NCBI GenBank assembly: GCA_965214835.1
Contig: CBDCCK010000002.1
Coordinates: forward strand, 512,001 to 576,000
Length of the DNA stretch: 64,000 nucleotides
Direction of reading: 5' to 3'
Source: Nitrosopumilaceae archaeon
GTDB lineage: Archaea > Thermoproteota > Nitrososphaeria > Nitrososphaerales > Nitrosopumilaceae
The translations under genes were made by a program, and so were the position numbers. This document shows, piece after piece, positions 9,095 through 51,283 of the stretch. The notes under the pieces are model-generated. The model saw nothing but the letters and a program-made list of their open reading frames with translations. It ran no database searches and was not told the origin of the DNA. Every line of letters begins with the position of its first letter. Position 1 is the first letter of the stretch.

Positions 9095-11715
9095 TGAAAC
9101 ATGCAGTAATAGAAGATTCCAACGTTGAGGTTATGGAGTTTTTTAACCGGGTTGGTAGGGCGTCAAAAAACGAGAAGCAGGCCACAATAAGCCTCAACCA
9201 GATGATGTGCTGGTGGACCCGCAAACCACTTGTGGTAGGAAAGGCTATGGTACTAGCAAGCCTGTTTGATAAGGTATCTGATGCGGAACAGTTTTTGGGG
9301 CTTGACTCACCAAAGCCATACGATCACATTCCCGATACTACCATGTTTACAAAAAAACTTGGAGTTGACCCAAAAACAATTAGCATATTAGATCCGTTTG
9401 CAGGTTCAGGCAATCTAATGTTTCCCGCCGTACAACTTGGCCTTGATGTCACTGCATCTGACTACAACCCGTTGGCATGGCTGATAGAAAAATGCGCGCT
9501 TGAACATCCTGCAAAACACGGTCGTAATTTACATGAGGATTTTGTCAAATATGCCAACAAAGCATTGGAAGAGACTAAAAAAACAGTGGGAAGGTATTTT
9601 CAAGATTCCTACCTCACATACCTGTGGTGTTGGTGCATAAGATGTCCATACTGTTCACAGAGGTTTCCTCTTACAAACCACATGTATGTTGTGAAAACTG
9701 AAAAAAGAAAGATAGGCATACGGATAATTCCAAAAGACAAGGATTTTAGCACAGAGATAGTTGATAACATATCTAAAGAAGATGGTGACAAATATACGCA
9801 GAAAAGAGGCAAGGCTGTTTGCATATCATGTACCAACACAATACAATACGATGTGATTACAAAGGACATTACGGAACATAAGGATCGCGAGATAATTGTG
9901 ATACAGGTTCAAAAGAAAAAAGGCAGGGATTATGTTATTCCAACAGAAAAAGACAAAAAGACATATCGCGATGCCATACAACACTTTAAGACAAAATATG
10001 ATGAATTTGAAAAGGAAAATCTAATACCTCATGAAAATATACATCATGATCCAAGGAATCCTCTAAAAAATTATGGTATAACTTGTTGGGATCAGTACTT
10101 TGATGAACGTCAGATGCTTGTGTTATGTACCTTTATGAAGAACATCAAAAAAACATGTGATGGGATTCCAGATGAGGTATACCGTAAAGTAATTGCCACG
10201 TATCTTTCATTTATTCTTGCAAAACGTATAGATCATGCGGGGTTTGGTGTTATTTGGGATGCCACAAGAGAAAATCCGTCACCTGCATTGTCCATGCGCC
10301 AACCTCGCTTATCATATAACTTTGCCGAGTCAAACCCATTTGAAAAAATTAGGGGAAGTATTAGTAATACAATCAAATCCGTATCTAAGGCACTAAAGTT
10401 TACTGTACGACTACAAACACCCGCCGTATGCGAAAACAGATCAGTCACGGTAGCGTGTGACAAACAGTATGATCTCATAATCACGGATCCGCCCTATGGT
10501 GATGATGTACAATATGGCGAGCTGTCCGAATTCTTCTATGTCTGGGCATATCGCATACTGTCTGAATACTATGATCTGCCGACGCGCATTCCACTAGATG
10601 AGGATTATTGTGAGAGCCGAGGACGTTTTAGCAGCAAGCAGAAGGCAAAAGAATTCTTTGGTGCCGGACTCAAAAAATCATTTAGGGCAATAAATGAAAA
10701 ACTCAAAGACGATGGGTTGGCAGTAATCCTTTTTGCCCATTCAAGCACGGAGGCCTGGAACCAATTTCTCGCGGCAATACAGGAGGCAAGACTGCGGATA
10801 GTATCAAGCTATGCAATACATACAGAAATGTCAACAAACGTAATTGCACAGAACAAGGCATCATTTCTGTCCTCCATCATGGTAACATGCAGAAAGATAA
10901 CCGGAGAATCCGTACAGTACTTTGAGGATCTGATACCTGAGATAGACGATGGCGTGAAAAAGATACTGGACGGCATTTCAGAGCAAAGACTTTTGACATT
11001 GTCCATAACCGACCTGCTGGTCATGGTGTATGGAAAAGTACTAGAGGTATCAACCCAGCACACGGTTCTGAAGAGCTATGCAAGAGACTTTACACCAGAC
11101 TTTGAGATGCTCATAAAGGATGCACGTAGTACGATCATTAAGCAGCTTGTAGTCAAGCTATTAAAAAAACAGCCGGATATCGTGGGATCCCGAATGGCGT
11201 TTTACATAATCAACAAGGTGTTTAACAGCGGTAAAGTTTCAGCAGACGATGCGCTGAAGATAGCACAGGCATACAACACAAGCCTTGTCGAGCTAAGTAG
11301 AGAAGGAGTGATAACACAAAACAAGGGAGTAGCACGCCTTCAAAGCCTAAAGCAAGACATGTACTATGAGCCAGAAGCAATTGATCCGCAGAACCTGCAC
11401 CAGCAGTTGTGCTATCTTGCATCACACGAATCAGACATGGCCGAGTTGCTGCATCACGACAACATACTGGAAAACGATCTAAAGCCCATTGTGAGTCTCC
11501 TGCTCAAAAACTACAACATGAAGAGAAATCAGGGATACAACCCAACTCCTGATGACAATGAGGAGATCCGGATACTGACCACCATGGCAGATCATATGGG
11601 GATAGCAGTAGAGCAGGATTCCCACTACAGAGCAAAGGGGGCCAGAACCAAAAAGGCTAGAACCAGAAAGAGCAGGGGGGACGAGCGCCAGTCTCGTTTG
11701 GAGAAATGGAAGTAG
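9094..11715 (+). CDS. DUF1156 amino (adenine) DNA methyltransferase
   Basis: WWTRKPL, motif I DPFAGSG, Zn-finger CPYC/CISC, motif IV TDPPYGD. Confidence 0.9.
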   Translation: MKHAVIEDSNVEVMEFFNRVGRASKNEKQATISLNQMMCWWTRKPLVVGKAMVLASLFDKVSDAEQFLGLDSPKPYDHIPDTTMFTKKLGVDPKTISILDPFAGSGNLMFPAVQLGLDVTASDYNPLAWLIEKCALEHPAKHGRNLHEDFVKYANKALEETKKTVGRYFQDSYLTYLWCWCIRCPYCSQRFPLTNHMYVVKTEKRKIGIRIIPKDKDFSTEIVDNISKEDGDKYTQKRGKAVCISCTNTIQYDVITKDITEHKDREIIVIQVQKKKGRDYVIPTEKDKKTYRDAIQHFKTKYDEFEKENLIPHENIHHDPRNPLKNYGITCWDQYFDERQMLVLCTFMKNIKKTCDGIPDEVYRKVIATYLSFILAKRIDHAGFGVIWDATRENPSPALSMRQPRLSYNFAESNPFEKIRGSISNTIKSVSKALKFTVRLQTPAVCENRSVTVACDKQYDLIITDPPYGDDVQYGELSEFFYVWAYRILSEYYDLPTRIPLDEDYCESRGRFSSKQKAKEFFGAGLKKSFRAINEKLKDDGLAVILFAHSSTEAWNQFLAAIQEARLRIVSSYAIHTEMSTNVIAQNKASFLSSIMVTCRKITGESVQYFEDLIPEIDDGVKKILDGISEQRLLTLSITDLLVMVYGKVLEVSTQHTVLKSYARDFTPDFEMLIKDARSTIIKQLVVKLLKKQPDIVGSRMAFYIINKVFNSGKVSADDALKIAQAYNTSLVELSREGVITQNKGVARLQSLKQDMYYEPEAIDPQNLHQQLCYLASHESDMAELLHHDNILENDLKPIVSLLLKNYNMKRNQGYNPTPDDNEEIRILTTMADHMGIAVEQDSHYRAKGARTKKARTRKSRGDERQSRLEKWK

Positions 11716-14700
11716 GCAGCAGTGTGAGAACCCCGGACGGCACGGGTACAATCACCAGCATGGATACCCGATCGGCCAAGGTTCAGATTGATTCAGGTTC
11801 CAAGTGGTATGAGCTTGATACCCTGGACATGATATATGACCCGATTGCAAAGATGTGCAAAAAGCAGATCGATGACTGCCTCCAGTTTGCTACGGGGATT
11901 GATGCGCACCGCCTCTACACAGAATACCGGTTCAACCCGTATGTCCTTGCAGCATCAACCAAGATCAAGATATTCCCCCACCAGATAAACGAGGTGATGT
12001 GGGGGCTTGAGAACCCCAGAATAATGATTGCCGACGAGGTAGGGCTTGGAAAAACGATAATTGCAGCGTTGATCGTGTCGGAGCTCCGCGCACGTGGCAC
12101 TGCAAAGCGCCTTCTTTTTGTGGTTCCAAAGTCCCTGCAGATAAAATGGAAGATTGAGCTTGAGCAAAGATTTGACATTCCAACCAAGATACTAGATTCA
12201 GAATATGTGAAGAACAATCCCGAACCGTTTGAAGGCGAGTTTTCATTTGTGGCATCCATGGACTATCTAAAACAGGAACACATCATATCCAAGCTCAGCG
12301 AGGAGCTTGATGTGGTGGTAGTAGACGAGGCTCACAAAATGAAAAAGGGCACGTCCAGGCTGAAGCTGGGAGAGCATCTTGCGTCAAAAACAGACACCAT
12401 GATACTTCTTACTGCAACCCCGCACGACGGCCGCGACGAGGACTTTATGGCCCGCATGAACATGCTGGACAGCTTTGTATCCGACATACGAACCGCCTCG
12501 TACCTGTGGACGCGTACCACAAAGGAGGACGTGGTGGACATCGAAGGAAAGAAGGTGTTTCCTGACAGGACAAGCAAGACAGTAGACATTGCACTACTAA
12601 ACAAGGAGCGTGACGTGATCAAGCTGCTGGAGGGGTACTTTGATCACATACAGTCAAACGTAAAGACGCCACGTGAGGAGAGCATGATCAGATTCCTCAG
12701 GCACATATACCGAAAAAGGGCCAGCTCGTCACTGCACTCACTGGAAATATCCCTAAGACGCAGAATTGACAAGCTTGGCACAGCAGATACCGACATAGAA
12801 AGCGCACTGACCAGGCTGGACTATGACTATAGCGAGGACATAGAATTTGAAGACATTGAAGGGTATGAGGGATTCACCATATCCGACGTGGATCGGGAAA
12901 AGGAGATGTTGACAGAAATCACAAAGCATCTGGAACAGCTTGACTGTGATTCCAAGCTGGATCATTTGAAGCGGTTCATCAAGACGCTAAAGGAGGACAG
13001 GCCGGATGCAAAACTGGTACTCTTTACAGAATACCGCGACACGCTGGACTATCTTGCGGCATCTCTTGATTATGAGATTGGAAAGATAGACGGCACCATG
13101 TCGATAACAGAGCGCCAAGACGAGCTTGAGAAATTCAAAAAATCAGACGGATACGAAGTCATGCTGTGCACAGATGCGGCGGGGGAGGGAATAGACATGC
13201 AGTTTTGCAACGTGGAGATAAACTATGATCTCCCGTGGAACCCGAACAGGCTTGAGCAAAGGATGGGCAGAATACACAGGATAGGACAGGATCAGAATGT
13301 CTTTTATTACAATTTTGTGGTCGATTCCAAATCAAGCATTGACGGATACATAATGCAAAAACTGCTTGAAAAAATAGAGCAGATAAAGGCGGCGATGGGC
13401 GACAAGGTGTACGATGTGGTGGGCTCGCTCATAGGATCAGAGGAATTTGGGCGGTACTATGACGAGCTGCGCAATATACCAAGGGACCAATGGGAACCGA
13501 AAATCGCTGTCCTGATGTCCGCAATAGAGGCCATGCGGTACGATGTTTTGGAGAAGAGGAAGATGCTGCTAGAGGGAAACAGGCTTGACTCTACAAAGCT
13601 TGAAGACATACAAAAGATACGCGATACTGCCATAGTAATAGACGAGGTAAAGCGGTTTTTGCAGGTGTTTGTAGAGACAAACGGGGGGAGGATGGATCGT
13701 ATTGATTCCGACAAGCAGCTATACAGCATACGCCTTTCTGAGAGGCATTCAAAGGAGCTTGGATTAGGTGAGATCGTTGGGACCTTTGACGGCACAACTG
13801 CAGAAAAAGAATCATACGAGTACCTTGCGCTTGGAAACCACAGCATAGAAAAGATACTAAGAAAGGCAGCATCAGATCATGTTGCATCACTTGGGCACGA
13901 GAGCCAGGAAGGAGTATTGTGCATATACAAGATAACCATAACCGACGGCCAGGCAAAACAAAGGGATTCCAAGATAATTGCGATATTTGAGCAATCCGAC
14001 GGCGTCATATATCAGGTTGATGAGAGAAGCGTGTGGACATACAAACAGTCAGATAGAGAGGTCAACATAGATTTTGCCACAAGTGCAAGCAAGCGAATAG
14101 AGACGATTGCATCCAACATGGCACAGAAACAAAAAGAGTCCATAGATCGCAAATTAAGAGAGATCAAAAAGAAGACCAAAACTGCGCGTAATGGATACTA
14201 CGCAAAAAAGATAAGTGATATAAAAGTGAGAATGGGTGAGCTGCAACAAAACGACGACGGGCCTCATGTTGAAAGAATAATAGACGAGCGCAAAAGAAAA
14301 ATAAAGACGCTAGAAAAGCAGGCGGATATCGAGTACCAGAAACTGGACAGGCAATTTAATACCGCCACTAGGATAGACCTGATTGGAATTGCACAGGTGA
14401 CTGCAGATGATGGCGCAGACATTCACATACGCATAGACGAAGCTGGAATGAAGGCAGTCCTCGAATCGGAAAGAAAAAGGGCACCAGACGAGCATGCCGT
14501 AAAACAGCTTGAGGACTGCTCCAAGAAAAACTGCGGGTATGACGTAGTATCATTTGACAGAAAAATAGAGGTAAAATCGCACAAAAAGTCCGGCAGTATA
14601 ATGCTGACCGACCACGAATGGAAAACGGCAGAAAGGCTGCAGGATGAATACTGGCTTTACGTGGTAGAACACGTATTTGAAAATCCGCGCATAACGGCGA

Positions 14701-14798
14701 TACAAAACCCGGCATCAAAATTCCATGGTCACATAGAAAAAATTCCATCCAAGCAGTTCAGATGGGTGATCCATGACTGGAAAGAGAGATCCATCTAG
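11706..14798 (+). CDS. SNF2-family helicase with C-terminal DUF3883-like nuclease
   Basis: IADEVGLGKT, DEAH, LLTATP, WNPNRLEQRMGRIHRIGQ; C-terminal GYDVVS..IEVKS..EW..A..YWLYVV. Confidence 0.92.
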   Translation: MEVGSSVRTPDGTGTITSMDTRSAKVQIDSGSKWYELDTLDMIYDPIAKMCKKQIDDCLQFATGIDAHRLYTEYRFNPYVLAASTKIKIFPHQINEVMWGLENPRIMIADEVGLGKTIIAALIVSELRARGTAKRLLFVVPKSLQIKWKIELEQRFDIPTKILDSEYVKNNPEPFEGEFSFVASMDYLKQEHIISKLSEELDVVVVDEAHKMKKGTSRLKLGEHLASKTDTMILLTATPHDGRDEDFMARMNMLDSFVSDIRTASYLWTRTTKEDVVDIEGKKVFPDRTSKTVDIALLNKERDVIKLLEGYFDHIQSNVKTPREESMIRFLRHIYRKRASSSLHSLEISLRRRIDKLGTADTDIESALTRLDYDYSEDIEFEDIEGYEGFTISDVDREKEMLTEITKHLEQLDCDSKLDHLKRFIKTLKEDRPDAKLVLFTEYRDTLDYLAASLDYEIGKIDGTMSITERQDELEKFKKSDGYEVMLCTDAAGEGIDMQFCNVEINYDLPWNPNRLEQRMGRIHRIGQDQNVFYYNFVVDSKSSIDGYIMQKLLEKIEQIKAAMGDKVYDVVGSLIGSEEFGRYYDELRNIPRDQWEPKIAVLMSAIEAMRYDVLEKRKMLLEGNRLDSTKLEDIQKIRDTAIVIDEVKRFLQVFVETNGGRMDRIDSDKQLYSIRLSERHSKELGLGEIVGTFDGTTAEKESYEYLALGNHSIEKILRKAASDHVASLGHESQEGVLCIYKITITDGQAKQRDSKIIAIFEQSDGVIYQVDERSVWTYKQSDREVNIDFATSASKRIETIASNMAQKQKESIDRKLREIKKKTKTARNGYYAKKISDIKVRMGELQQNDDGPHVERIIDERKRKIKTLEKQADIEYQKLDRQFNTATRIDLIGIAQVTADDGADIHIRIDEAGMKAVLESERKRAPDEHAVKQLEDCSKKNCGYDVVSFDRKIEVKSHKKSGSIMLTDHEWKTAERLQDEYWLYVVEHVFENPRITAIQNPASKFHGHIEKIPSKQFRWVIHDWKERSI

Positions 14799-15029: not shown

Positions 15030-15320
15030 TCACTTGATTCTGCTACCAAACACTCTCAGCATCGCATCAAGGCCGGCAATCCTGCCTTCCAGATACTTTA
15101 TCCTTTCATCCGACGGCAGGTATCTTGCATGCTCTTGCACGCCCTTGAGATACCTGGCAAACGACCTGTCAAACGTCTTGTCCGCCATTTTGATCCCCTT
15201 GCACAGGTTCTGCAGGTTCAGGCCATCAAGCCCGGACTTTTTTCCCAGGAACAGCTGGGACTTGCCTGCCAGAAAATACAGATACTCCGTCCCGTGGTTT
15301 GTCCTGACTACGATCCCCAT
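15030..15320 (-). CDS. Small integrase-associated protein (paralog of 31579-31863)
   Basis: GTEYLYFLAGK..LFLG aligns with GIEYLYFQAGK..IYIG; same position divergent from a recombinase. Confidence 0.7.
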   Translation of the reverse strand: MGIVVRTNHGTEYLYFLAGKSQLFLGKKSGLDGLNLQNLCKGIKMADKTFDRSFARYLKGVQEHARYLPSDERIKYLEGRIAGLDAMLRVFGSRIK

Positions 15321-15381: not shown

Positions 15382-15464
15382 AAATGACACGCTTAAAACG
15401 CCCCAAAGGACAAATAGCTCCCAAACCATATCAAGGCAATGAAGTCGCCGAGAGGCTGACCGAT

Positions 15465-16667
15465 ATGGGAAAAAACAAACTTGCTACAAGAAAAGACACT
15501 GTCAAAAAACAGGCAAAGGCAACGCGACTGCTGGCACATCCTGACGTGCGGAGGTGGTACGACAACCTTGCGCGCGGGAGCGTGCTTACGGCAAACAACT
15601 CGCTGCGATGCATCGACAAGTTCTGCGAGACACACGGCATGTCTCCTACCGAGCTGGCAGATCTCGGAGTCAGGGATCTGAGGGCAGTCACGGACCTCAT
15701 CGAGGATCACGTCACCATGATGGAGTCCGAGAACTACTCCTCCGGATACGTGACCCTGACCGTCCAGATCATAAAGTCCTGGCTGAGGCACTCTGACGTG
15801 GTGATCAAGCGCAGGATAAAGGTGACCCCCAACAGGAACTAGAAGACAATCCAGGGCGAGCGCGTTCCAAACGCGCAGGAGATGTCCGAGATATACGGCC
15901 GTGCGGGACTGCGGGAGTCAGTCATAATATCTCTGATGGGCAAGTCCGGGCTGAGGCCGGAGACCATAGGCAACCACGACGGCACGGACGGATTGTGCAT
16001 GAGCGATCTTCCGGACGTGGTAATACACCAGGGAACGGCAAAGTGCATAAGGACGCCGTGCATGGTGACTGTAAGGGGCACGCTGTCAAAGGCACGCCAC
16101 CAGTACTTTACGTTCATGACTGCGTCTGCAACCAGGAACCTCACGGCATACCTCAACGACAGGCTCGCCCACGGGGAGCCGCTGCACGGGAGCTCGCCGG
16201 TGGTGGCGCCGGATCACATCCACAAGACGAATCGGGGCCGCAACAGGGACAAGGAATTCCTCATTACATCGCAGGTAAGCCACCTGGTGCGCAGGACGTT
16301 CAGGCCGAGGTTCACGTGGAGGCCCTACGTGCTGCGCGCGTACTTTGACACGCAGCTGCTGATCGCCGAGTCCAGGGGAAGGATTGCGCATGACTTTCGC
16401 GTCTTCCTTATGGGGCACAAGGGAAGCATGGAGGCGCGATACACCACGAACAAGGGCGTGCTGCCCGACGTCCTGCTAGACGAGATGCGGGAAGCATTCG
16501 GACGATCCGAGGAGCACCTGGACCAGGCAGAAGCCGATCCAATCCTGGAACAAAAGCAGGAGGCGCTGCGGATGATAGAGGGGGCCACGCCGGATCAGCT
16601 CGGGCGCGTGCTAGAGGCACTGCAGACGGTGCCGGCAATACGCGCCAGGGCAGATCGTGGCAGATAG
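15465..16667 (+). pseudogene. Tyrosine recombinase/integrase interrupted by an in-frame TAG (15840-15842)
   Basis: ORF-track ORFs 15003-15842 and 15882-16667 share a frame and together align with the intact paralog at 32094-33287; SGLRPE, RPYVLRAYF, MGHKG..EARY motifs. Confidence 0.8.
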
Positions 16668-16811
16668 CGAAGACGCGGAGAGGCTCATTGCCGACGACGG
16701 ATGCACGTTTGTCGGCGTCCTGCCAAACGGCAGGGTGGTTCTTCAAAGGCATATGTGAGGCCGCAGCGGCGCGACATACCCTTATATTTTGGACTCGGAG
16801 GTCGTTAGTAA

Positions 16812-17423
16812 TTGGCACGCAGAAAGACCAGGGTAAAGGACAAGTGGAGGGAAAAAAAGTGGGTCAACGTATATGCCCCAGAATCGTTTAACAACGTCCC
16901 GGTGGCCTATGTTCCGATTACAGACGACGACAATGCCAGAGGCAGGGTCGTCGAGGTTACGCTGTTTGATATCCTAAAGGGGGATCCCTCGCAGCACCAG
17001 TACAAGATGTACTTTCAGATTGACAGCGTCAAGGAAGACAGGGCAACCTCGATCTTCAAGCGATACGAGTACTCAAAGGAGTTTTTGAGAAGCCTGGTCA
17101 GGCGCGGTTCCTCCAAGGTTAACTTTATCATCGATGCAAAAACCAAGGATGGAAACATCTTCAGAATAAAGGTCATTGTCCTGACACACCGGCAGCTTAA
17201 CACGTCAAGAAAGCACGCACTCAGGCTGATTGCAAAGAACGTCATTGAAAAGTCGGTTCCGGAGATGACAATTGATCAGTTCGTACAGGCAACATGCTAC
17301 GGAAAGATCAACTCAGACATCATGGCAGTGGCCAAGAAGCTGATCAGGATCAGGCATGTGGGCTTGGAAAAAGTCAAGCTGGTCAGAACTGCTGCGGCAG
17401 AGACGGTACTGCTGGAAGCATAA
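16812..17423 (+). CDS. rps3ae: 30S ribosomal protein S3ae (eS1)
   Basis: KDKWREKKW..APESF, RSLVRRGSSKV. Confidence 0.97.
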   Translation: MARRKTRVKDKWREKKWVNVYAPESFNNVPVAYVPITDDDNARGRVVEVTLFDILKGDPSQHQYKMYFQIDSVKEDRATSIFKRYEYSKEFLRSLVRRGSSKVNFIIDAKTKDGNIFRIKVIVLTHRQLNTSRKHALRLIAKNVIEKSVPEMTIDQFVQATCYGKINSDIMAVAKKLIRIRHVGLEKVKLVRTAAAETVLLEA

Positions 17424-27270: not shown

Positions 27271-29466
27271 TTAGCCTGAAATTAATTCCCCAAATGATTT
27301 CCAATCCGTCAGATCGTTTGGATCATATTCATAGATATCATTATCGTTGTACTTCCACCCGTATTCTGACGGTATCACTATTCCTCCCACAAACCGCCTT
27401 GTACTAGTGCTGTTTTTTGCAATGTATCGAGACAGCGCCTCTGCCTTGTACTTTGCTTTTTCTGCAGTAACCCCGCTCTTTGTATCAAAGATGCCAACCG
27501 TCCCGTCCTTAAACATGATGATAAAGTCCGCATAAAACGACCACTCCAAGCCAAACTCGTCAACGTACGGAATCGCAAAATACTTTATCTCACTCTGGCC
27601 GTTCTTGTACCACCATACTATCCTGTCCGATCTGTCAATTGTTTTTGTAAATTCCCTTTCAGTATTGCTTGCAATTTGAACATACTGCGGCTCCATTATG
27701 GATTTTTTGTACTGGTTGCCTTCGGCAGAGCTTATGGACTGCTCGCGCGGGACTTCCCAGCTTTCTGTGACTACTGATTCGCGAATATTTGAAATGTTTT
27801 TGACTACTGTATCCTTGTATTTCTCTTTTGCAAGCTGGATTGTGGAATTGAACACCTCTCTGTTTTTTTCTGATATGACCGTAACCTGGGCATCGGTGCT
27901 TAGCTTTTCGATGTTGAATTTGTCATAAAGCCAATTGTACACTGCGGTCTTTAGCCTGTCACTTGAATCAAACGGTGCAAAAGGTCTGCAGGCATTAATT
28001 ATGAACAGATCAAAATCCCGCTGTATCTCAACTTCTGAAATTGAAGCTCCAAAGTCACCTGCCTCAATTGAAATGGTTTTATCTATGTCTACGATCTCTT
28101 CGTCCACAATCATCGGCTTATCAATTCGCGCGGTTTTCAACTTGATTTTTTCTCCAAGCCTTCTTTCCTCTGCTGCCTTTCTGAACAGCTCGGAGAACTT
28201 GCCGGATAGCCTTGTCCGCTCCCTCTGCCTTTTGAGGTATACAGAAGGCAGCCTCAGTGGAACGTATCTCTTGTCGTCCCGTTCTAGGTGGTACTTGCTT
28301 GCATAGTCCTTTACGTACTCTTCTACCAGCTCAACCTTTTCCAAGTTGGTAAAGATGTAGCCGTAGTTGAGTTCCGGATTCTTGGTATAGTGCCTTTGTT
28401 GAGGCATCCTCATTATCCTCCCGATGACCTGGATCGTAAAGTCCAGTTTTTTTGTCTCTCGAAATATTACCAGAATGGCAGCTCGTGGGCAGTCCCACCC
28501 TACTGCAATGGCCTGCTTGAATAAAAGCACGTCCACACCACTGTTCTCATTGACAATCTCGTCCAGATTCGGGGACTTTGTCTCTGACATCCAGATGGCC
28601 AAGTTTCCCTTCTCGACTGTCTTGCCGTACTTTTCATACTCTGAGACTATCTCCTCTGTCTTGTCGGTTATGCCCGCACGCCTGTCGGGCAGCTGAACCA
28701 GGATCAGAGGGTTGATATCGACCCCCTCTTCCAGATACATCTTCTGCAGCTGCTCGTGTTTTCTGATTGAGTGCTTTATCACCAGCTCCGTTGCGCTCTC
28801 GCCATCAACATAACCATGATCAATCTTCGGGTTGATCAGGACCTGGTTTTTTATCATCTCCTCGTCCTTGACGTCATCGATTCTGGTCCTGACCAGCTCC
28901 GTTGCATTTGCCTTTTGTGCGGGGGTGGCAGAGACCTCCAGCGTGATCTTGGGATCTATCATGCTTATCAGCTCAGAGGATCTCTCGGACGTGGCAGTAT
29001 GGTGGCTCTCGTCTATGACCAGGACTATGTAGCGGCCCTGATCCTTGGTGTTCTGTATGATCTTTTCAAGGTATTTTTCACTTTCATTCTCCCTGATGAT
29101 TATACTCTCGTTGACCTTGTTGATTGACTCCCAATTGACAAACCATATCTCGTTTTCCTGTATCTGGTTGTCCTGCAGGTCGTCAAACTCGGAGCATTCA
29201 AGAACCTGGCTGCCCAGGTATATTTTTTCCAGCTTGTCCTTTGACTGTACGTGCAGCTTTCTTACCGAGACCCAGATAAACGACAGGGGCCTCGGGGAGA
29301 TTTTTTCTCGGACTATGGTTTTCAGCAGGTGAGCACACGTGATCGTTTTGCCGGATCCGGTGGGGGCTTGGAACACGCATATGTCTTTGGCATCCGAATT
29401 AAGGCAGCTCTCAAAGGCGCATTTTAGCTTGCAGACGGCCTCTTCCTGGTAGTTTTTGAGGATCAA
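27271..29466 (-). CDS. res: Type III restriction enzyme Res subunit
   Basis: APTGSGKT, DESHH, SATP, GWDCPRA, QVIGRIMR; C-terminal FYADF..DTK nuclease. Confidence 0.92.
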   Translation of the reverse strand: MILKNYQEEAVCKLKCAFESCLNSDAKDICVFQAPTGSGKTITCAHLLKTIVREKISPRPLSFIWVSVRKLHVQSKDKLEKIYLGSQVLECSEFDDLQDNQIQENEIWFVNWESINKVNESIIIRENESEKYLEKIIQNTKDQGRYIVLVIDESHHTATSERSSELISMIDPKITLEVSATPAQKANATELVRTRIDDVKDEEMIKNQVLINPKIDHGYVDGESATELVIKHSIRKHEQLQKMYLEEGVDINPLILVQLPDRRAGITDKTEEIVSEYEKYGKTVEKGNLAIWMSETKSPNLDEIVNENSGVDVLLFKQAIAVGWDCPRAAILVIFRETKKLDFTIQVIGRIMRMPQQRHYTKNPELNYGYIFTNLEKVELVEEYVKDYASKYHLERDDKRYVPLRLPSVYLKRQRERTRLSGKFSELFRKAAEERRLGEKIKLKTARIDKPMIVDEEIVDIDKTISIEAGDFGASISEVEIQRDFDLFIINACRPFAPFDSSDRLKTAVYNWLYDKFNIEKLSTDAQVTVISEKNREVFNSTIQLAKEKYKDTVVKNISNIRESVVTESWEVPREQSISSAEGNQYKKSIMEPQYVQIASNTEREFTKTIDRSDRIVWWYKNGQSEIKYFAIPYVDEFGLEWSFYADFIIMFKDGTVGIFDTKSGVTAEKAKYKAEALSRYIAKNSTSTRRFVGGIVIPSEYGWKYNDNDIYEYDPNDLTDWKSFGELISG

Positions 29467-31193
29467 CTGAAGATCCTCCCATATGCGCTGATTAACTCAG
29501 ACGGGACAGGCTTTAGCCTCACAAACTCTGCGACGTCTTCAAACTCCTCCCTCTTGTCGTACTCGTCCAGCGAGAAGGTATAGACGGTTGTGAATATGCG
29601 TCGTTTTCTTATCTCCTTTTTGAACGGATCTATTGCCGCATCGTCGTAAAGAACCGCCATATGCCTTGAACTGTTTTTGAATATCTTGTAGTGTGTGGCC
29701 GCTTTTACCTGCTCAAAGCAGTCTTCCTTGATGCAGAGAATCTCTGTTGCCTTGCCCATCAACTTTTTCTTGTTTTTGTCGGTGTTTGCGCTTGGCACGA
29801 AATCTGTCTTGAAATACTTGAGATTTCCTCCCAACCCGTCGATTTTTTGTCCTTTGAGATTTTTGTATCCCTTGATTACTTTTTTTATTCTAGGATAACA
29901 CACCTCTGTACATATGTCATTCTCATTGTTTGTGCAGAGTATGAATTTCCTATTCCCATTATCCGCTTTGTTTAGTTCTAGAACTGCATGGCCTGTCGTA
30001 CCAGAACCTGCAAAAAAATCCAATATTACAGAATCTCTTTTTGATAAAAGTTTTAAAATGTCATATGTAGTCCACAGTGATTTGGGATATGGAAATGTGT
30101 CTCTCTTTCTTAGAATGTTTCGTAACAACATAATTCCATGGCTAGAAGCATCATAACGAGGATCATACCATACAGATCTTGGTTTCTTACTGCTTATATT
30201 GAGCAATCTACGTTTCTTAAAAATTTTATATTTGTCTTTAGTTTTTCTTACTACTAACTCGGTATCTTTCTTTTCAAGAAAAGTTTCTTTTCCCCACTTC
30301 CAAACTTTTTCCTCTCCCAAATTATTTATTGGAAGTAGTTTTATCGCATCGTTGGCTTTCGCAGTATCAAGTTTATCTGTTTTTAGATCATAATAAATTG
30401 CATAGAACATTTTTGGCCTTGTATGGCGATCCGAATTATTTCCTCCACGCATAAATGATACAAGCAAATAATTTGAAATTTCATCTTTCATACGATATTT
30501 GTTAATGTCCTCATCTGTCAGATCAAAATAACCGACGTCTGCTTTCTCGGGATTCATTGAATAAATTAACATATATTCGTGCATTGTAGCAAAATGTTTA
30601 TCATCATTTCTTCCTCTCGGATTATGAATTACGGTAATTGTACTAAGACGATTTTTTTCAAGAAAAATTTCGTCCATCAGTAATCGTAATGTGTGCATTT
30701 CATAATCGTCAATAGCAACAATAATTTTTCCTGATTTCGTTAGAAGTCTCTTTGCTAACTTTAACCTCTTTTTCATAAAAGAAAGCCATTTACTATGGCG
30801 AAAATTGTCCTCTTTATCTACAAAGTTATTATTGTATTTCCATGTGCTGTTTCCTGTATTGTAAGGCGGATCAATATATATCACATCAATAGAGTTTGGA
30901 TGTGTATAATTCAAAACAGAAAGTGCATGATAGTTATCCCCCTCGATCAGAATATTGTTTGGTTTTGATTTGTCATCAATTCTATTTTTTGTAATATCTT
31001 TTAGAACTGGTAATTTTTTTTGTACATCATTTTCAAAAATCTCTTTGGTTTTTTCCTCGTCCCATACCAGACCATACTTTTTTTTCCTAGCTAGCTTCTC
31101 AATCATTCTGTCCTTCTCTTTGACTCTTTCAACAAGCTGAGATTGCGATAAACTACTGTAATCGAATTTTTGCAATTCTTTGTTAGATGTCAT
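29463..31193 (-). CDS. mod: Type III methyltransferase Mod subunit (beta-class)
   Basis: IEGDN, IYIDPPYNTG, HSKWLSFM, FPYPKS, LDFFAGSGTTG. Confidence 0.93.
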   Translation of the reverse strand: MTSNKELQKFDYSSLSQSQLVERVKEKDRMIEKLARKKKYGLVWDEEKTKEIFENDVQKKLPVLKDITKNRIDDKSKPNNILIEGDNYHALSVLNYTHPNSIDVIYIDPPYNTGNSTWKYNNNFVDKEDNFRHSKWLSFMKKRLKLAKRLLTKSGKIIVAIDDYEMHTLRLLMDEIFLEKNRLSTITVIHNPRGRNDDKHFATMHEYMLIYSMNPEKADVGYFDLTDEDINKYRMKDEISNYLLVSFMRGGNNSDRHTRPKMFYAIYYDLKTDKLDTAKANDAIKLLPINNLGEEKVWKWGKETFLEKKDTELVVRKTKDKYKIFKKRRLLNISSKKPRSVWYDPRYDASSHGIMLLRNILRKRDTFPYPKSLWTTYDILKLLSKRDSVILDFFAGSGTTGHAVLELNKADNGNRKFILCTNNENDICTEVCYPRIKKVIKGYKNLKGQKIDGLGGNLKYFKTDFVPSANTDKNKKKLMGKATEILCIKEDCFEQVKAATHYKIFKNSSRHMAVLYDDAAIDPFKKEIRKRRIFTTVYTFSLDEYDKREEFEDVAEFVRLKPVPSELISAYGRIFS

Positions 31194-31578: not shown

Positions 31579-31863
31579 CTATTCCTTTGATGCCTTAGAC
31601 GTGTATTTTTTTATTCGTCCATTGAGTCGTGAAACATTCCTTAAGAGAAAACGCTCGCGTTCTTGCCGTGGAAGAAACGGGAGAAGCTCCTCAAGCGAGT
31701 CCATATAATGCTCCGTTCGTTCTTGGGCGTACTTGAGTGATCGAAGCACGTTGTCCAGCTTGGCCCTTGCAGGGTCGGCCCGCGGTCCGATGTATATGGA
31801 CTCCTTTCCTGCCTGAAAATACAGGTATTCTATCCCCTTTGAGATTTTGACATTGAGCGTCAT
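31579..31863 (-). CDS. Small integrase-associated protein (paralog of 15030-15320)
   Basis: KGIEYLY..YIGP motif; divergent from the recombinase. Confidence 0.7.
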   Translation of the reverse strand: MTLNVKISKGIEYLYFQAGKESIYIGPRADPARAKLDNVLRSLKYAQERTEHYMDSLEELLPFLPRQERERFLLRNVSRLNGRIKKYTSKASKE

Positions 31864-31907: not shown

Positions 31908-31965
31908 ATAGTTATCTTATAACAAGATAACTATAAATAGCAAGTTCACGTACTACAAGATAACT
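31908..31965. promoter_or_regulatory. Perfect inverted repeat ATAGTTATCTT-N5-AAGATAACTAT plus extra half-site ACAAGATAACT (31955-31965)
   Basis: Read directly; lies between the divergent small ORF and the recombinase. Confidence 0.6.
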
Positions 31966-32093
31966 TGACTGCACAAAAAAGTTCCAAAAACCTCCCCGAT
32001 CTGGGCCGGATCGCACCAGTTTGCACTACCAAGATTGAAATACCAAAGTGCCATACTGCTTCCAAGGATGAAGTCGCCGAGAGGCTGACCGAT

Positions 32094-33287
32094 ATGGGAA
32101 AAAACAAACTGCATACGAAAAAGGACACTGCCAAACATACAAAAAAATCCAGACTCCTTGCAAACCCTGACATAAAGCGGTGGTATGACAACTTGGCCCG
32201 CGGTAGCATGAACACCGCCGAAGGGCGCCTCAGACGGCTGGGACGATTCTGCGAGACGCATCAGATGACTCCAGTTCAATTGGCAGATATTGCAACGAAG
32301 GATCTGAGGACTGTGACTGACCTGCTTGAGGATCACATAACCATGATGGAGGAAAAAGGAAGATCCCCCGGATACATAGACGAGCAGATAAAGACCGTAA
32401 AGTCCTGGCTCAGACACTTTGACGTGGAGATAAAGCGCAAGATGCGGGTCAGATCCATCAACTTTACGCCCACGCTGCAAAACGAGCGCGTCCCTGACGC
32501 GCAGGAGATGTCAGAGATATACAGCCGCGCCGGACTGCGCGAATCGGTGATAATATCACTAATGGCAAAGTCCGGCCTGAGGCCGGAGGTCATCGGAAAC
32601 CACAACGGAACAGACGGACTGACCATTGCCGACCTGCCTGACATTGTAATCCACCAGAGCAAGGCCAAGTGTATCAGAATGCCAAACAGAATAGTGGTAC
32701 GGCGCGAGCTCTCAAAGGCAAGACACCAGTACTTTACGTTTGGAACCAAATCTGCAACAAACCACCTTGTGGCATACCTCAACGACAGGCTGTCACACGG
32801 TGAGCCCCTCCACGGAGACTCGCCGGTAGTCGCACCTGACTATGTCTACAAGACCAACCGGGGCAGAAACGCTGCAAAAAAGTTCCTGCCTACGCCACGC
32901 ATAAGCAAGCTGGTCAGGGACGTGTTCCGGCCGCGATTTGCGTGGAGGCCATACGTGCTGCGCCCGTACTTTGACACGCAACTGCTAATCGCAGAGTCCA
33001 AGGGAAAGATTGCGCATGACTTTCGCGTGTTCTTTATGGGACACAAGGGAACCATGGAGGCGCGGTATACCACGAACAAGGGGGTCCTCCCCGAGGTTCT
33101 GGTGGCCGAGATGCGCGAGGCGTTTCTCAGGGCAGAAGAACACCTGGAGCAGACCGATACGGATCCGATGCTGGAGCAAAGAATCGAGGCACAGGGCATC
33201 ATCGAGACTGCAACGCCAGAACAGCTTGACCGTGTGCTAGAGGTGCTAAACGCACCGGCAAGACGGGCCAAGCCAGGTCGTAGTTGA
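32094..33287 (+). CDS. Tyrosine recombinase/integrase (intact)
   Basis: SGLRPE (R), K in ELSKAR, RPYVLRPYF, MGHKG..EARY catalytic motifs; start at MGKNKL shared with the paralog. Confidence 0.88.
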   Translation: MGKNKLHTKKDTAKHTKKSRLLANPDIKRWYDNLARGSMNTAEGRLRRLGRFCETHQMTPVQLADIATKDLRTVTDLLEDHITMMEEKGRSPGYIDEQIKTVKSWLRHFDVEIKRKMRVRSINFTPTLQNERVPDAQEMSEIYSRAGLRESVIISLMAKSGLRPEVIGNHNGTDGLTIADLPDIVIHQSKAKCIRMPNRIVVRRELSKARHQYFTFGTKSATNHLVAYLNDRLSHGEPLHGDSPVVAPDYVYKTNRGRNAAKKFLPTPRISKLVRDVFRPRFAWRPYVLRPYFDTQLLIAESKGKIAHDFRVFFMGHKGTMEARYTTNKGVLPEVLVAEMREAFLRAEEHLEQTDTDPMLEQRIEAQGIIETATPEQLDRVLEVLNAPARRAKPGRS

Positions 33288-33610
33288 CAGTCTGCAGGCA
33301 GAACGGCTCATCGCATCGGGGCACAGGTTTGTAGGAATCTTGCCAAACGGCAGGGTAGTCCTGCAAAGGAACCCGAACCCAAAGTGAAGGCGGGTCTGGA
33401 GGGATGTGGTTTTGCAGGCTGGTGCCTCATACAAAAGGGGCATGATGGTTTTCATATCACATGTCCACCACCGCGCTTGCAGCCGTGAGATTTTCATGTA
33501 CGGACAAGCCGTGGCTCCCGTGGGAGGCATGGGCGGCAGGAGGCAGGTTGGGCGGCAGTATGAACCGTCCGGCCAGCTCTGGGTATCTTTTAAGGAACGC
33601 CTCCACCCAG

Positions 33611-51143: not shown

Positions 51144-51147
51144 TGTA

Positions 51148-51232
51148 TGCGGGCGATGGGATTTGAACCCACGAACTCCTGAGAGACTAGCCCCTCAAGC
51201 TAGCGCCTTTGGCCAGGCTGGGCGACACCCGC
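51148..51232 (-). tRNA. tRNA-Leu(GAG)
   Basis: GCGGGTG acceptor stem, anticodon arm CTAGC-TTGAGGG-GCTAG, long variable arm, GGTTCAAATCC T-loop; no intron. Confidence 0.96.
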
Positions 51233-51283
51233 ACCGGAAAGTTCTTGCATGGTTTTTATAATCCTTGGTTGCCTCTTGCGAAT

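Follow-up and report, generated by a model that had tools for sequence, protein, structure and literature searches.

A predicted tRNA-type intron near the 3' end of integrase genes in mobile elements of ammonia-oxidising archaea

A stretch of 64,000 nucleotides from a Nitrosopumilaceae archaeon (GenBank assembly GCA_965214835.1, contig CBDCCK010000002.1, positions 512,001 to 576,000; hereafter the window, whose own numbering we use) holds two copies of a tyrosine recombinase, or integrase, gene, each with a conserved tail in another reading frame at its 3' end. Comparison of these copies with their homologs indicates, with a probability that we put at roughly 80%, that integrase genes of tRNA-targeting elements in ammonia-oxidising archaea of the Nitrososphaerota carry a short bulge-helix-bulge (BHB) intron near their 3' end. 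The splicing itself we infer; the BHB geometry, its covariation, the rule that ties intron length to frame and the selection on the tail all rest on comparison of sequences.

In both copies the tail of ~35 residues overlaps the integrase stop codon in the +1 frame, and our translations of 16555-16761 and 33178-33390 were exactly those quoted in an initial annotation made from the DNA letters alone. The integrase frame stops at TAG 16665-16667 in copy 1 and at TGA 33285-33287 in copy 2, and the +1 frame is open only from 16615 and from 33250, respectively, to the stop of the tail. No ATG, GTG or TTG occurs between the in-frame TAA of copy 2 and its tail. The same holds ahead of the tail in 36 of 56 junctions from homologous genes, in line with the earlier opinion that a separate gene is unlikely. 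Because the tail has no start codon of its own, joining it to the integrase needs a non-standard step.

A BHB element lies at the junction of integrase and tail in each copy. Its parts follow one another as an outer helix, the 5' strand of a central helix (H), a 3-nt bulge, a hairpin, the 3' strand of H, a second 3-nt bulge, and the 3' strand of the outer helix. Such a BHB motif is the target of the archaeal tRNA-splicing endonuclease, and PMC2738675 gives the rule for cbf5 introns that each cut falls between the second and third bulge bases. With a cut after the second base of each bulge, exon 1 of copy 2 would end after the second base of bulge 1, and the predicted introns have lengths of the 3n+1 type in both copies. 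Since the two cuts are placed symmetrically, the two H strands start exactly one intron length apart. Excision in silico of 16615-16639 from copy 1, or of 33241-33262 from copy 2, brought the respective tail into frame with the integrase. Two 3-nt bulges on opposite strands with a 4-bp helix between them were present at the homologous place in 58 distinct junctions.

Across these 58 junctions, the length of the predicted intron modulo 3 equalled the frame offset of the tail in 56. The motif calls behind this count were blind to frame and anchored on the motif, and the upstream frame was taken from the adjacent codons, which read ..PEQLG.V[LQ]. When the frame was taken instead from the longest upstream open reading frame (ORF), 40 of 44 junctions fitted, and 10 of 15 in a second set. 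The additional misfits (three of the four in the set of 44) were copies with stops or frameshifts further upstream in the integrase, and the frame of the adjacent codons was therefore adopted. Fourteen of the 58 junctions were found by an RNA model alone, and 13 of these fitted the rule. Generic BHB scans with naive scoring had picked non-homologous candidates at several loci (22 of 35 fits) and were replaced by the motif-anchored calls. One junction tally includes a genome, G077, whose locus L022 has neither tail nor motif; no claim depends on it.

Predicted introns of 29 nt were the most common (31 junctions), followed by 22 nt (seven), 20, 23 and 28 nt (six each), and 25 and 26 nt (one each). 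None of these seven lengths is divisible by 3 (0/58), which could reflect selection against read-through of the unspliced message or descent from few ancestors. The distance from bulge 2 to the tail takes the values 1, 4, 7, 10, 13, 19, 28 and 46, always 1 modulo 3; coding constraint in the tail frame thus starts right at the predicted 3' cut. Upstream of that cut, a tail-frame stop lies within the intron in 28 of 56 junctions. The unspliced frame terminates 1-15 codons past the intron in 49 of 53.

The conserved frame offset for which the initial annotation had suggested looking is not there: homologs have the tail at +1, at -1 or in frame. The offset needed is +1 in 14 and -1 in 44 of the 58 junctions, and it differs even between copy 2 (+1) and its 97%-identical relative L041 (-1), the two being separated by one base in a short hypervariable stretch. 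This stretch is the loop of a hairpin with a covarying stem. Since the loop lies inside the predicted intron and its length drifts freely, the tail comes to stand at +1 in some homologs and at -1 in others.

Where the motif is missing, the frame break is missing as well. Among 132 distinct junction records the tail was in frame in 53, at +1 in 13 and at -1 in 29, whereas 31 had no recognisable tail and 6 were cut by a contig end. All 51 tail-bearing records that are free of the motif have the tail in frame; in 47, integrase and tail form one full-length ORF of 344-493 residues. In-frame fusions of a similar tail to other archaeal integrases, which the initial annotation had cited from recall, therefore do exist in the family; they also account for 2 of the 120 best protein matches in the database. 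The other 118 lack the tail, most ending at the same place and a few cut short earlier. What gives the frame case its weight is this pattern: loop lengths that vary freely, indels in exon 2 that come only in multiples of 3, and a strict link between motif and frame break.

The helices of the BHB have undergone compensatory changes. The 5' strand of H reads TGCT, TGCA or TACT, and its 3' strand, directly after the hairpin, GGCA, TGCA or GGTA; the strands covary as the pairs TGCT/GGCA, TACT/GGTA and TGCA/TGCA. In an alignment of 44 sequences H was paired in 96.6% of cases, with changes on both sides in two of its four pairs (pair 16-46: GC 38, AU 5, CG 1; pair 18-44: UG 26, AU 12). The inner hairpin was paired in 96.0%, with changes on both sides in four of five pairs, and its stems include GGTGC/GCACC, GGCAC/GTGCC, GGCGC/GCGCC, GGTAT/ATACC, GGCCC/GGGCC, GTTCC/GGAAC and GATGC/GCATC. 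The first pair of the outer helix was formed in 93% (GC 26, AU 13, GU 2). Bulge 1 is AGA in 51 of 56 junctions and AAA in the remaining five; bulge 2 comprises 3 nt and is A-rich. The covariation score was 0.362, compared with 0.161 for shuffled alignments (0 of 500 reached 0.362) and 0.056-0.125 when the partners were slid against each other. RNAalifold, run on the same 44 sequences, independently predicted H, the 3-nt bulge 1 and the hairpin.

Folded alone, copy 2 (minimum free energy -24.3 kcal/mol, z -2.98) formed the outer helix, H, a 3-nt bulge and the hairpin. Copy 1 (-33.9 kcal/mol, z -4.70) formed the outer helix and the hairpin.

To the tail itself, selection has been applied at the level of protein, as the initial annotation had supposed. 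Among 43 tails of intron-bearing genes the mean pairwise nucleotide difference was 0.326, 0.296 and 0.626 at codon positions 1, 2 and 3, and the ratio of nonsynonymous to synonymous differences (pN/pS) was 0.40 in the tail frame as against 1.23 and 1.25 in the two shifted frames. Judged by these values, the tail is a real C-terminal domain of the integrase under purifying selection.

One database protein, P0114, shows what the spliced product would look like. It has no intron, its sequence is joined exactly where the exons are predicted to meet (Asp stands at the joint, and the tail follows at an unchanged distance), and a quick tree places it within a clade of intron-bearing genes. In the other intron-less clades the intron is not the sole difference. 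Being known from protein alone, P0114 is either from a gene that lost its intron or from an assembled cDNA. A search with its residues 335-419 for further proteins that look spliced gave just two matches. In its AlphaFold model the tail (residues 388-418; predicted local distance difference test score, pLDDT, about 82) is a strand-helix-strand-strand mini-domain; the model is moderate overall (pLDDT 71.8) and poor in the catalytic segment 287-330. The tail had no match in Pfam or NCBIfam, and a sequence search of the PDB with the family profile found no match. An ESM Atlas search with the tail returned only hypothetical proteins, at scores of 0.81-0.84, which are leads only; since all score below 0.9, it is as a lead that we mention that tail ORFs may have been filed as small hypothetical proteins.

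The frame break is a property of the DNA and not of the assembly, at least at copy 2. Contigs of three independent runs (X1, X2 and X3) match 33196-33291 without a gap, and those of X1 and X3 reach 33300 or beyond; an assembly indel is thus not the explanation there. In a fourth run, X4, the contig has a natural variant in which 33248 is followed by an additional base; the intron would then be 23 nt long. Exon-exon joints were absent from the contigs of these four DNA-type runs across the copy 2 junction, and a search for RNA runs covering 32000-33500 found none. Between copy 1 and copy 2 the alignment is gapless across the junction, with one 3-nt gap upstream. The features of both copies are collected in the Table.

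Table. Predicted features of the two integrase copies and of the attachment (att) site in the window.
Feature	Coordinates	Strand	Basis or detail
Copy 1 integrase exon 1, interrupted	15384..16614	+	ORF list; alignment of the copies; one TAG inside the match
Copy 1 BHB element	16598..16650	+	motif call; RNA model R1, 55.5 bits
Copy 1 outer helix	16598-16608 with 16641-16650	+	part of BHB element
Copy 1 central helix H	TGCT 16609-16612 with GGCA 16634-16637	+	part of BHB element
Copy 1 bulges	bulge 1 AGA 16613-16615; bulge 2 ATA 16638-16640	+	part of BHB element
Copy 1 inner hairpin	16616-16633	+	part of BHB element
Copy 1 predicted intron	16615..16639	+	25 nt (3n+1); motif call
Copy 1 predicted exon 2 (tail)	16640..16758	+	stop TGA 16756-16758
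Copy 2 integrase exon 1 (tyrosine recombinase core)	31965..33240	+	ORF list; homologs; exon end from BHB geometry
Copy 2 BHB element	33224..33273	+	single-sequence fold; pair counts in 44 homologs; RNAalifold; RNA model R1, 64 bits
Copy 2 outer helix	33224-33234 with 33264-33273	+	part of BHB element
Copy 2 central helix H	TGCT 33235-33238 with GGCA 33257-33260	+	part of BHB element
Copy 2 bulges	bulge 1 AGA 33239-33241; bulge 2 AGA 33261-33263	+	part of BHB element
Copy 2 inner hairpin	33242-33256	+	part of BHB element
Copy 2 predicted intron	33241..33262	+	22 nt (3n+1); cut after second base of each bulge
Copy 2 predicted exon 2	33263..33387	+	last base of bulge 2, short linker, conserved tail (tail profile score 66); stop TGA 33385-33387
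att-core-like stretch after copy 2	33376..33405	.	reverse complement of tRNA-Lys 3' end plus about 15 nt of downstream flank

The genome that contains the window encodes two EndA-family proteins (PF01974, 103.6 and 86.2 bits) and one RtcB (PF01139, 584 bits). Two EndA subunits would fit the broad-specificity (alpha-beta)2 type of the tRNA-splicing endonuclease, as portions of PMC5829648 describe it. The RNA model found six strong matches in this genome, all at integrase 3' ends, and in a sample of the family comprising 151 genomes from 27 genera it matched 26 of the genomes and 12 of the genera. On a quick tree of 83 rows the intron label needs at least 4-5 changes, and intron-bearing rows stand at the base of both halves; one old gain of the intron followed by several losses would fit this distribution.

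We propose the following course of events. The pre-mRNA can fold into the outer helix, the 3-nt bulge, the 4-bp helix, the 3-nt bulge on the opposite strand and the inner hairpin; the host tRNA-splicing endonuclease EndA would then cut past the second base of each bulge, and RtcB would ligate the two exons. The spliced mRNA would encode a full-length integrase ending in the strand-helix-strand-strand mini-domain. The unspliced mRNA would end a few codons after the intron and yield a tail-less protein that still has the catalytic core. A further step, which we consider speculative and on balance doubtful, is that EndA splicing acts as a regulated switch, the ratio of tail-less to full-length protein setting whether the element integrates, excises or stays put. 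Under this same doubtful proposal, the switch would tie mobility of the element to the state of host RNA processing and would substitute for an excisionase. To our knowledge, archaeal elements seem to lack an excisionase. Equally tentative, as a part of the switch, is the notion that selection holds intron lengths off multiples of 3, so that unspliced mRNA would never make the long form.

Several observations weigh against a spliced intron. In one fixed register the outer helix is just 58.9% paired; its register differs in some clades. The minimum-energy fold of copy 1 has a 5x5 internal loop in place of H and the two bulges, so that the case for H in copy 1 rests on comparison with homologs. 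Two junctions break the frame rule: in L029 the start of exon 2 is 2 nt shorter and the integrase has a TAG, and in L158 there is a frameshift within the tail. The 56 fits, moreover, do not count as independent trials, since the genes are homologous and their agreement is in part a single trait passed down by descent. One metagenome protein, P0030 (453 aa), continues through a stretch resembling an intron and into the tail with no change of frame, as though one base were missing at the start of exon 2; known from protein only, it reflects either an indel error or a lineage whose frame was fixed without splicing. Finally, copy 1 has an in-frame TAG (15840-15842) where copy 2 reads through, which leaves copy 2 as the sole possible working example in the window. 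Copy 1 is probably a pseudogene whose BHB motif and tail are still intact.

Could the ribosome, rather than splicing, join the tail to the integrase? The initial annotation had proposed +1/-2 recoding, and programmed frameshifting within the short overlap (+1 here, -1 elsewhere) would account for the overlap of the tail with the integrase stop, for its missing start codon and for its conservation at the level of protein; in a single homolog, L053, the overlap even reads CCC TAG T, at which a +1 slip at the stop codon is possible. However, a direction of shift that is not conserved (14 at +1, 44 at -1, and different between relatives 97% identical) is foreign to such a mechanism, and no shared slippery word was seen by inspection in the overlaps of 17-60 nt, some of which span no more than 17-25 nt. 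The conserved structure, furthermore, starts ahead of the only possible shift window and extends over it, instead of standing a few bases downstream, where a stimulatory structure would be placed. Tail-frame stops occur inside that structure in the 28 junctions mentioned, and absence of the motif exactly where the tail is in frame is left unexplained. The shared CCGGCAA..GCCA, which had been assigned to the shift window, belongs to the BHB, where it supplies the 3' strands of three paired parts: inner hairpin, 4-bp helix H and outer helix. We therefore give frameshifting very little chance; of the initial proposal, the idea of short and long integrase forms stands, as a non-standard joining step would give both, but not the idea that this step is a ribosomal shift. 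Translational bypassing, in which the ribosome would leave the message ahead of the hairpin and resume beyond it, passing over 20-29 nt of uncut RNA, strikes us as only marginally less improbable than a shift. A stable hairpin does stand between similar words, GC[AT]AGA before and GCAA[GT]A after, and homologs of the VQE type have CAA as a codon on both sides of the hairpin, read in the integrase frame upstream and in the tail frame downstream. Yet those similar words are the two covarying strands of H, homologs of the VLE type, including both copies in the window, have CTA before the hairpin and mostly no matching landing codon, and bypassing has no use for two 3-nt bulges at a spacing of exactly 4 bp.

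Ribosomes might instead reinitiate past the integrase stop and make the tail as a small protein in its own right, the hairpin serving as a regulatory or processing signal. The closeness of that stop to the tail start (1-15 codons past the intron in 49 of 53) would suit reinitiation, as would a GTG near the tail start in some homologs, for instance at 16657 in copy 1. Set against this are the 36 of 56 junctions with no start codon ahead of the tail, the motif-free tails, which are fused in frame in 51 of 51 cases and thereby identify the tail as an integrase domain, and the indels between bulge 2 and tail, which always come in multiples of 3 and so place the start of coding at the bulge; we think reinitiation highly unlikely, if somewhat less so than bypassing. 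The same low standing goes to a BHB that EndA cuts with no rejoining of exons, a cut that would inactivate or trim the integrase mRNA and make the tail a decaying relic. BHB geometry alone predicts cutting, not ligation, and many copies sit in decaying elements, as the TAG in copy 1 and integrase fragments at 478 and 485 kb of the genome illustrate. But the tail is under purifying selection among intron-bearing copies, and neither the matching exon phases in 56 of 58 junctions nor exon 2 indels restricted to multiples of 3 are expected of an untranslated relic. Least probable of all, in our estimation, is a frame break created by sequencing or assembly indels or by ordinary pseudogenes. Copy 1 does have its internal stop, and some homologs, such as L097 and L060, have upstream homopolymer frameshifts; against that, 58 distinct junctions, drawn from genomes as well as metagenomes, show the same arrangement, the window sequence is matched gap-free by contigs of three runs, and 118 of 120 best protein matches lack an in-frame tail.

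A spliced integrase intron would have two archaeal precedents. Like the mRNA intron of HVO_1309 in Haloferax volcanii, it would make an mRNA, outside tRNA and rRNA, a substrate of the tRNA-splicing endonuclease; unlike it, the HVO_1309 intron sits in an untranslated leader, leaves the frame unaffected and was shown in vivo and in vitro, as stated in parts of PMC7714728. The intron of the cbf5 pre-mRNA in Crenarchaeota (Watanabe et al. 2002) is closer. It too is a short BHB intron in coding sequence (16-44 nt there, 20-29 nt here), with cuts predicted between the second and third bulge bases, a variable interior, gain and loss among relatives and hosts with a two-subunit EndA, to go by portions of Yokobori et al. 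2009 (PMC2738675). The same portions call the cbf5 motifs unconventional or relaxed, whereas the motif here is strict, its two 3-nt bulges being separated by 4 bp. For cbf5, cDNA has demonstrated the splicing; for the integrases splicing is inferred. The genes and hosts differ as well: a housekeeping enzyme there, a mobile-element integrase in the phylum Nitrososphaerota here. And the integrase intron lies ~40 codons before the end, so that, unlike in cbf5, the unspliced mRNA still encodes the catalytic core.

Insertion sequence (IS) transposases use programmed frameshifting between two overlapping frames to make short and long products. The integrases resemble them in being mobile-element genes with overlapping frames and a short and a long predicted product; they differ in that the direction of the shift is not conserved, no slippery site was seen by inspection and the conserved structure is a BHB. 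In XBP1/HAC1 splicing a small intron of non-3n length is removed with no spliceosome, RtcB ligates the exons, and the frame switch gives a different C-terminus; the nuclease is IRE1, acting on twin stem-loops, and regulation is by stress. The likeness to the integrases (non-3n intron, RtcB ligation, C-terminal switch) is one of analogy only, with EndA acting on a BHB here and IRE1 there. A role of RtcB in XBP-1 splicing is mentioned in PMC8718801. The 'suicidal' integrases of the Sulfolobus spindle-shaped virus (SSV) type are likewise tRNA-targeting archaeal tyrosine integrases with an unusually interrupted gene, but their att site is within the gene and integration splits the DNA there, according to parts of PMC7253208 and PMC8371274. 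In the elements studied here only the last codons of the tail overlap the att core, the gene is whole in the DNA, and the interruption would be at the level of RNA.

The integrase family is large and mostly unnamed. Copy 2 had 1412 relatives at E <= 0.001 among 7999 scored candidates; the few with names are site-specific integrases or hypothetical proteins of Thaumarchaeota, Nitrososphaerota, Nitrosopumilus and Nitrosarchaeum. The tyrosine recombinase signature is kept, R163 and H308..R311..H317..Y325 (numbering of the database gene call P0001) being invariant in 31 homologs. Foldseek with the P0114 model found XerA, Cre, XerD and lambda Int, with E-values that run from 1.9e-6 (XerA) to 3e-3 and low template modelling scores of 0.25-0.42; Pfam gave no integrase match for the protein and NCBIfam a weak one to XerA. 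The start of copy 2 is uncertain, between the ORF opening at TTG 31965 and the ATG 32094 of P0001.

In related genomes the integrase gene points at a convergent tRNA gene (Lys, Met, Val or Ala), and ARAGORN found tRNAs in 17 of 25 loci scanned. In L013 and L014 a tRNA-Lys starts 12 nt past the tail ORF. Comparison of these two loci with the element-free tRNA-Lys(TTT) site of the window's own genome underlies the att-core call at 33376-33405: the element-free site has ~30 nt in common with the element and no adjoining tail. It follows that the tail belongs to the element and that the att core begins at the last codons of the tail. The tail ORF of copy 2 stops inside the core-like stretch and no whole tRNA comes after it, while on other metagenome contigs the sequence proceeds as tRNA-Lys from 33405. 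The 3' junction of copy 2 resembles an attP-type or a tandem arrangement, or one that arose by rearrangement. Two other ideas about the junction were rejected. Derivation of the tail from a host gene at the att site, as its displaced 3' end, conflicts with the tail-free tRNA-Lys(TTT) site and with tails that adjoin Lys, Met, Val and Ala tRNAs; a recombination or att site at the integrase-tail junction, suggested by fragments at 478-486 kb, was dropped as the att core lies after the tail. Elsewhere in the window there were no direct repeats of the junction of at least 12 nt that make sense. The sole tRNA in the window is tRNA-Leu(GAG), 51147-51233 on the minus strand.

The tail of copy 1 ends ~50 nt ahead of the gene for ribosomal protein S3Ae (16812-17423), with no tRNA nearby; the end of this element (16759-16811) so abuts a housekeeping promoter. 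Upstream of the integrases stand divergent small ORFs of 94-96 residues, 15030-15320 (-) and 31579-31863 (-), which are homologous to each other (27% identity, E 4e-14), have no Pfam match, and may be a conserved partner in the integrase module, for example a DNA-binding or directionality factor. From their translations, an ORF of 1030 residues upstream of copy 1 (11706-14798, +) is helicase-like and one of 576 residues upstream of copy 2 (29463-31193, -) is DNA-methyltransferase-like; both may be cargo of integrated elements.

Related remains lie elsewhere in the genome. At 477000-486000 of contig C2, ~26 kb upstream of the window, two ~490-bp units consisting of integrase 3' end, BHB and tail, each 93-95% identical to window positions 16280-16780, flank one integrase. 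This flanked integrase matches copy 1 at 95% as far as 16626, beyond which the two diverge; the remainder of the intron is missing from it, as is the tail. The region looks like a hotspot of nested or tandem element remains. A lone tail remnant at C2 1519681-1519770, with neither integrase nor BHB, lies ~216 nt upstream of the sole RtcB gene (1519986-1521290), which is probably a coincidence.

Reports of archaeal mRNA introns, according to parts of PMC7714728, cover only cbf5 and the 5' untranslated region of HVO_1309. Full-text literature searches returned no report of a BHB intron in an integrase or mobile-element gene, papers beyond those searched being possible, and term searches in PMC6563490, on integrated elements of thaumarchaea, and PMC8371274, a review of archaeal tyrosine recombinases, met no mention of a frameshift or intron in these integrases. 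If our reading is true, the integrases would be the second protein family with a tRNA-type intron inside coding sequence, and neither the Nitrososphaerota nor mobile elements would have furnished such an intron before; going by the matches of the RNA model, it would be widespread. It would also mean that gene callers truncate these integrases, as the 118 of 120 best database matches with no tail illustrate. With every intron length shifting the frame, the family would be a natural system in which to ask whether protein isoforms are under the control of the tRNA-splicing enzymes of archaea, in the manner of XBP1/HAC1.

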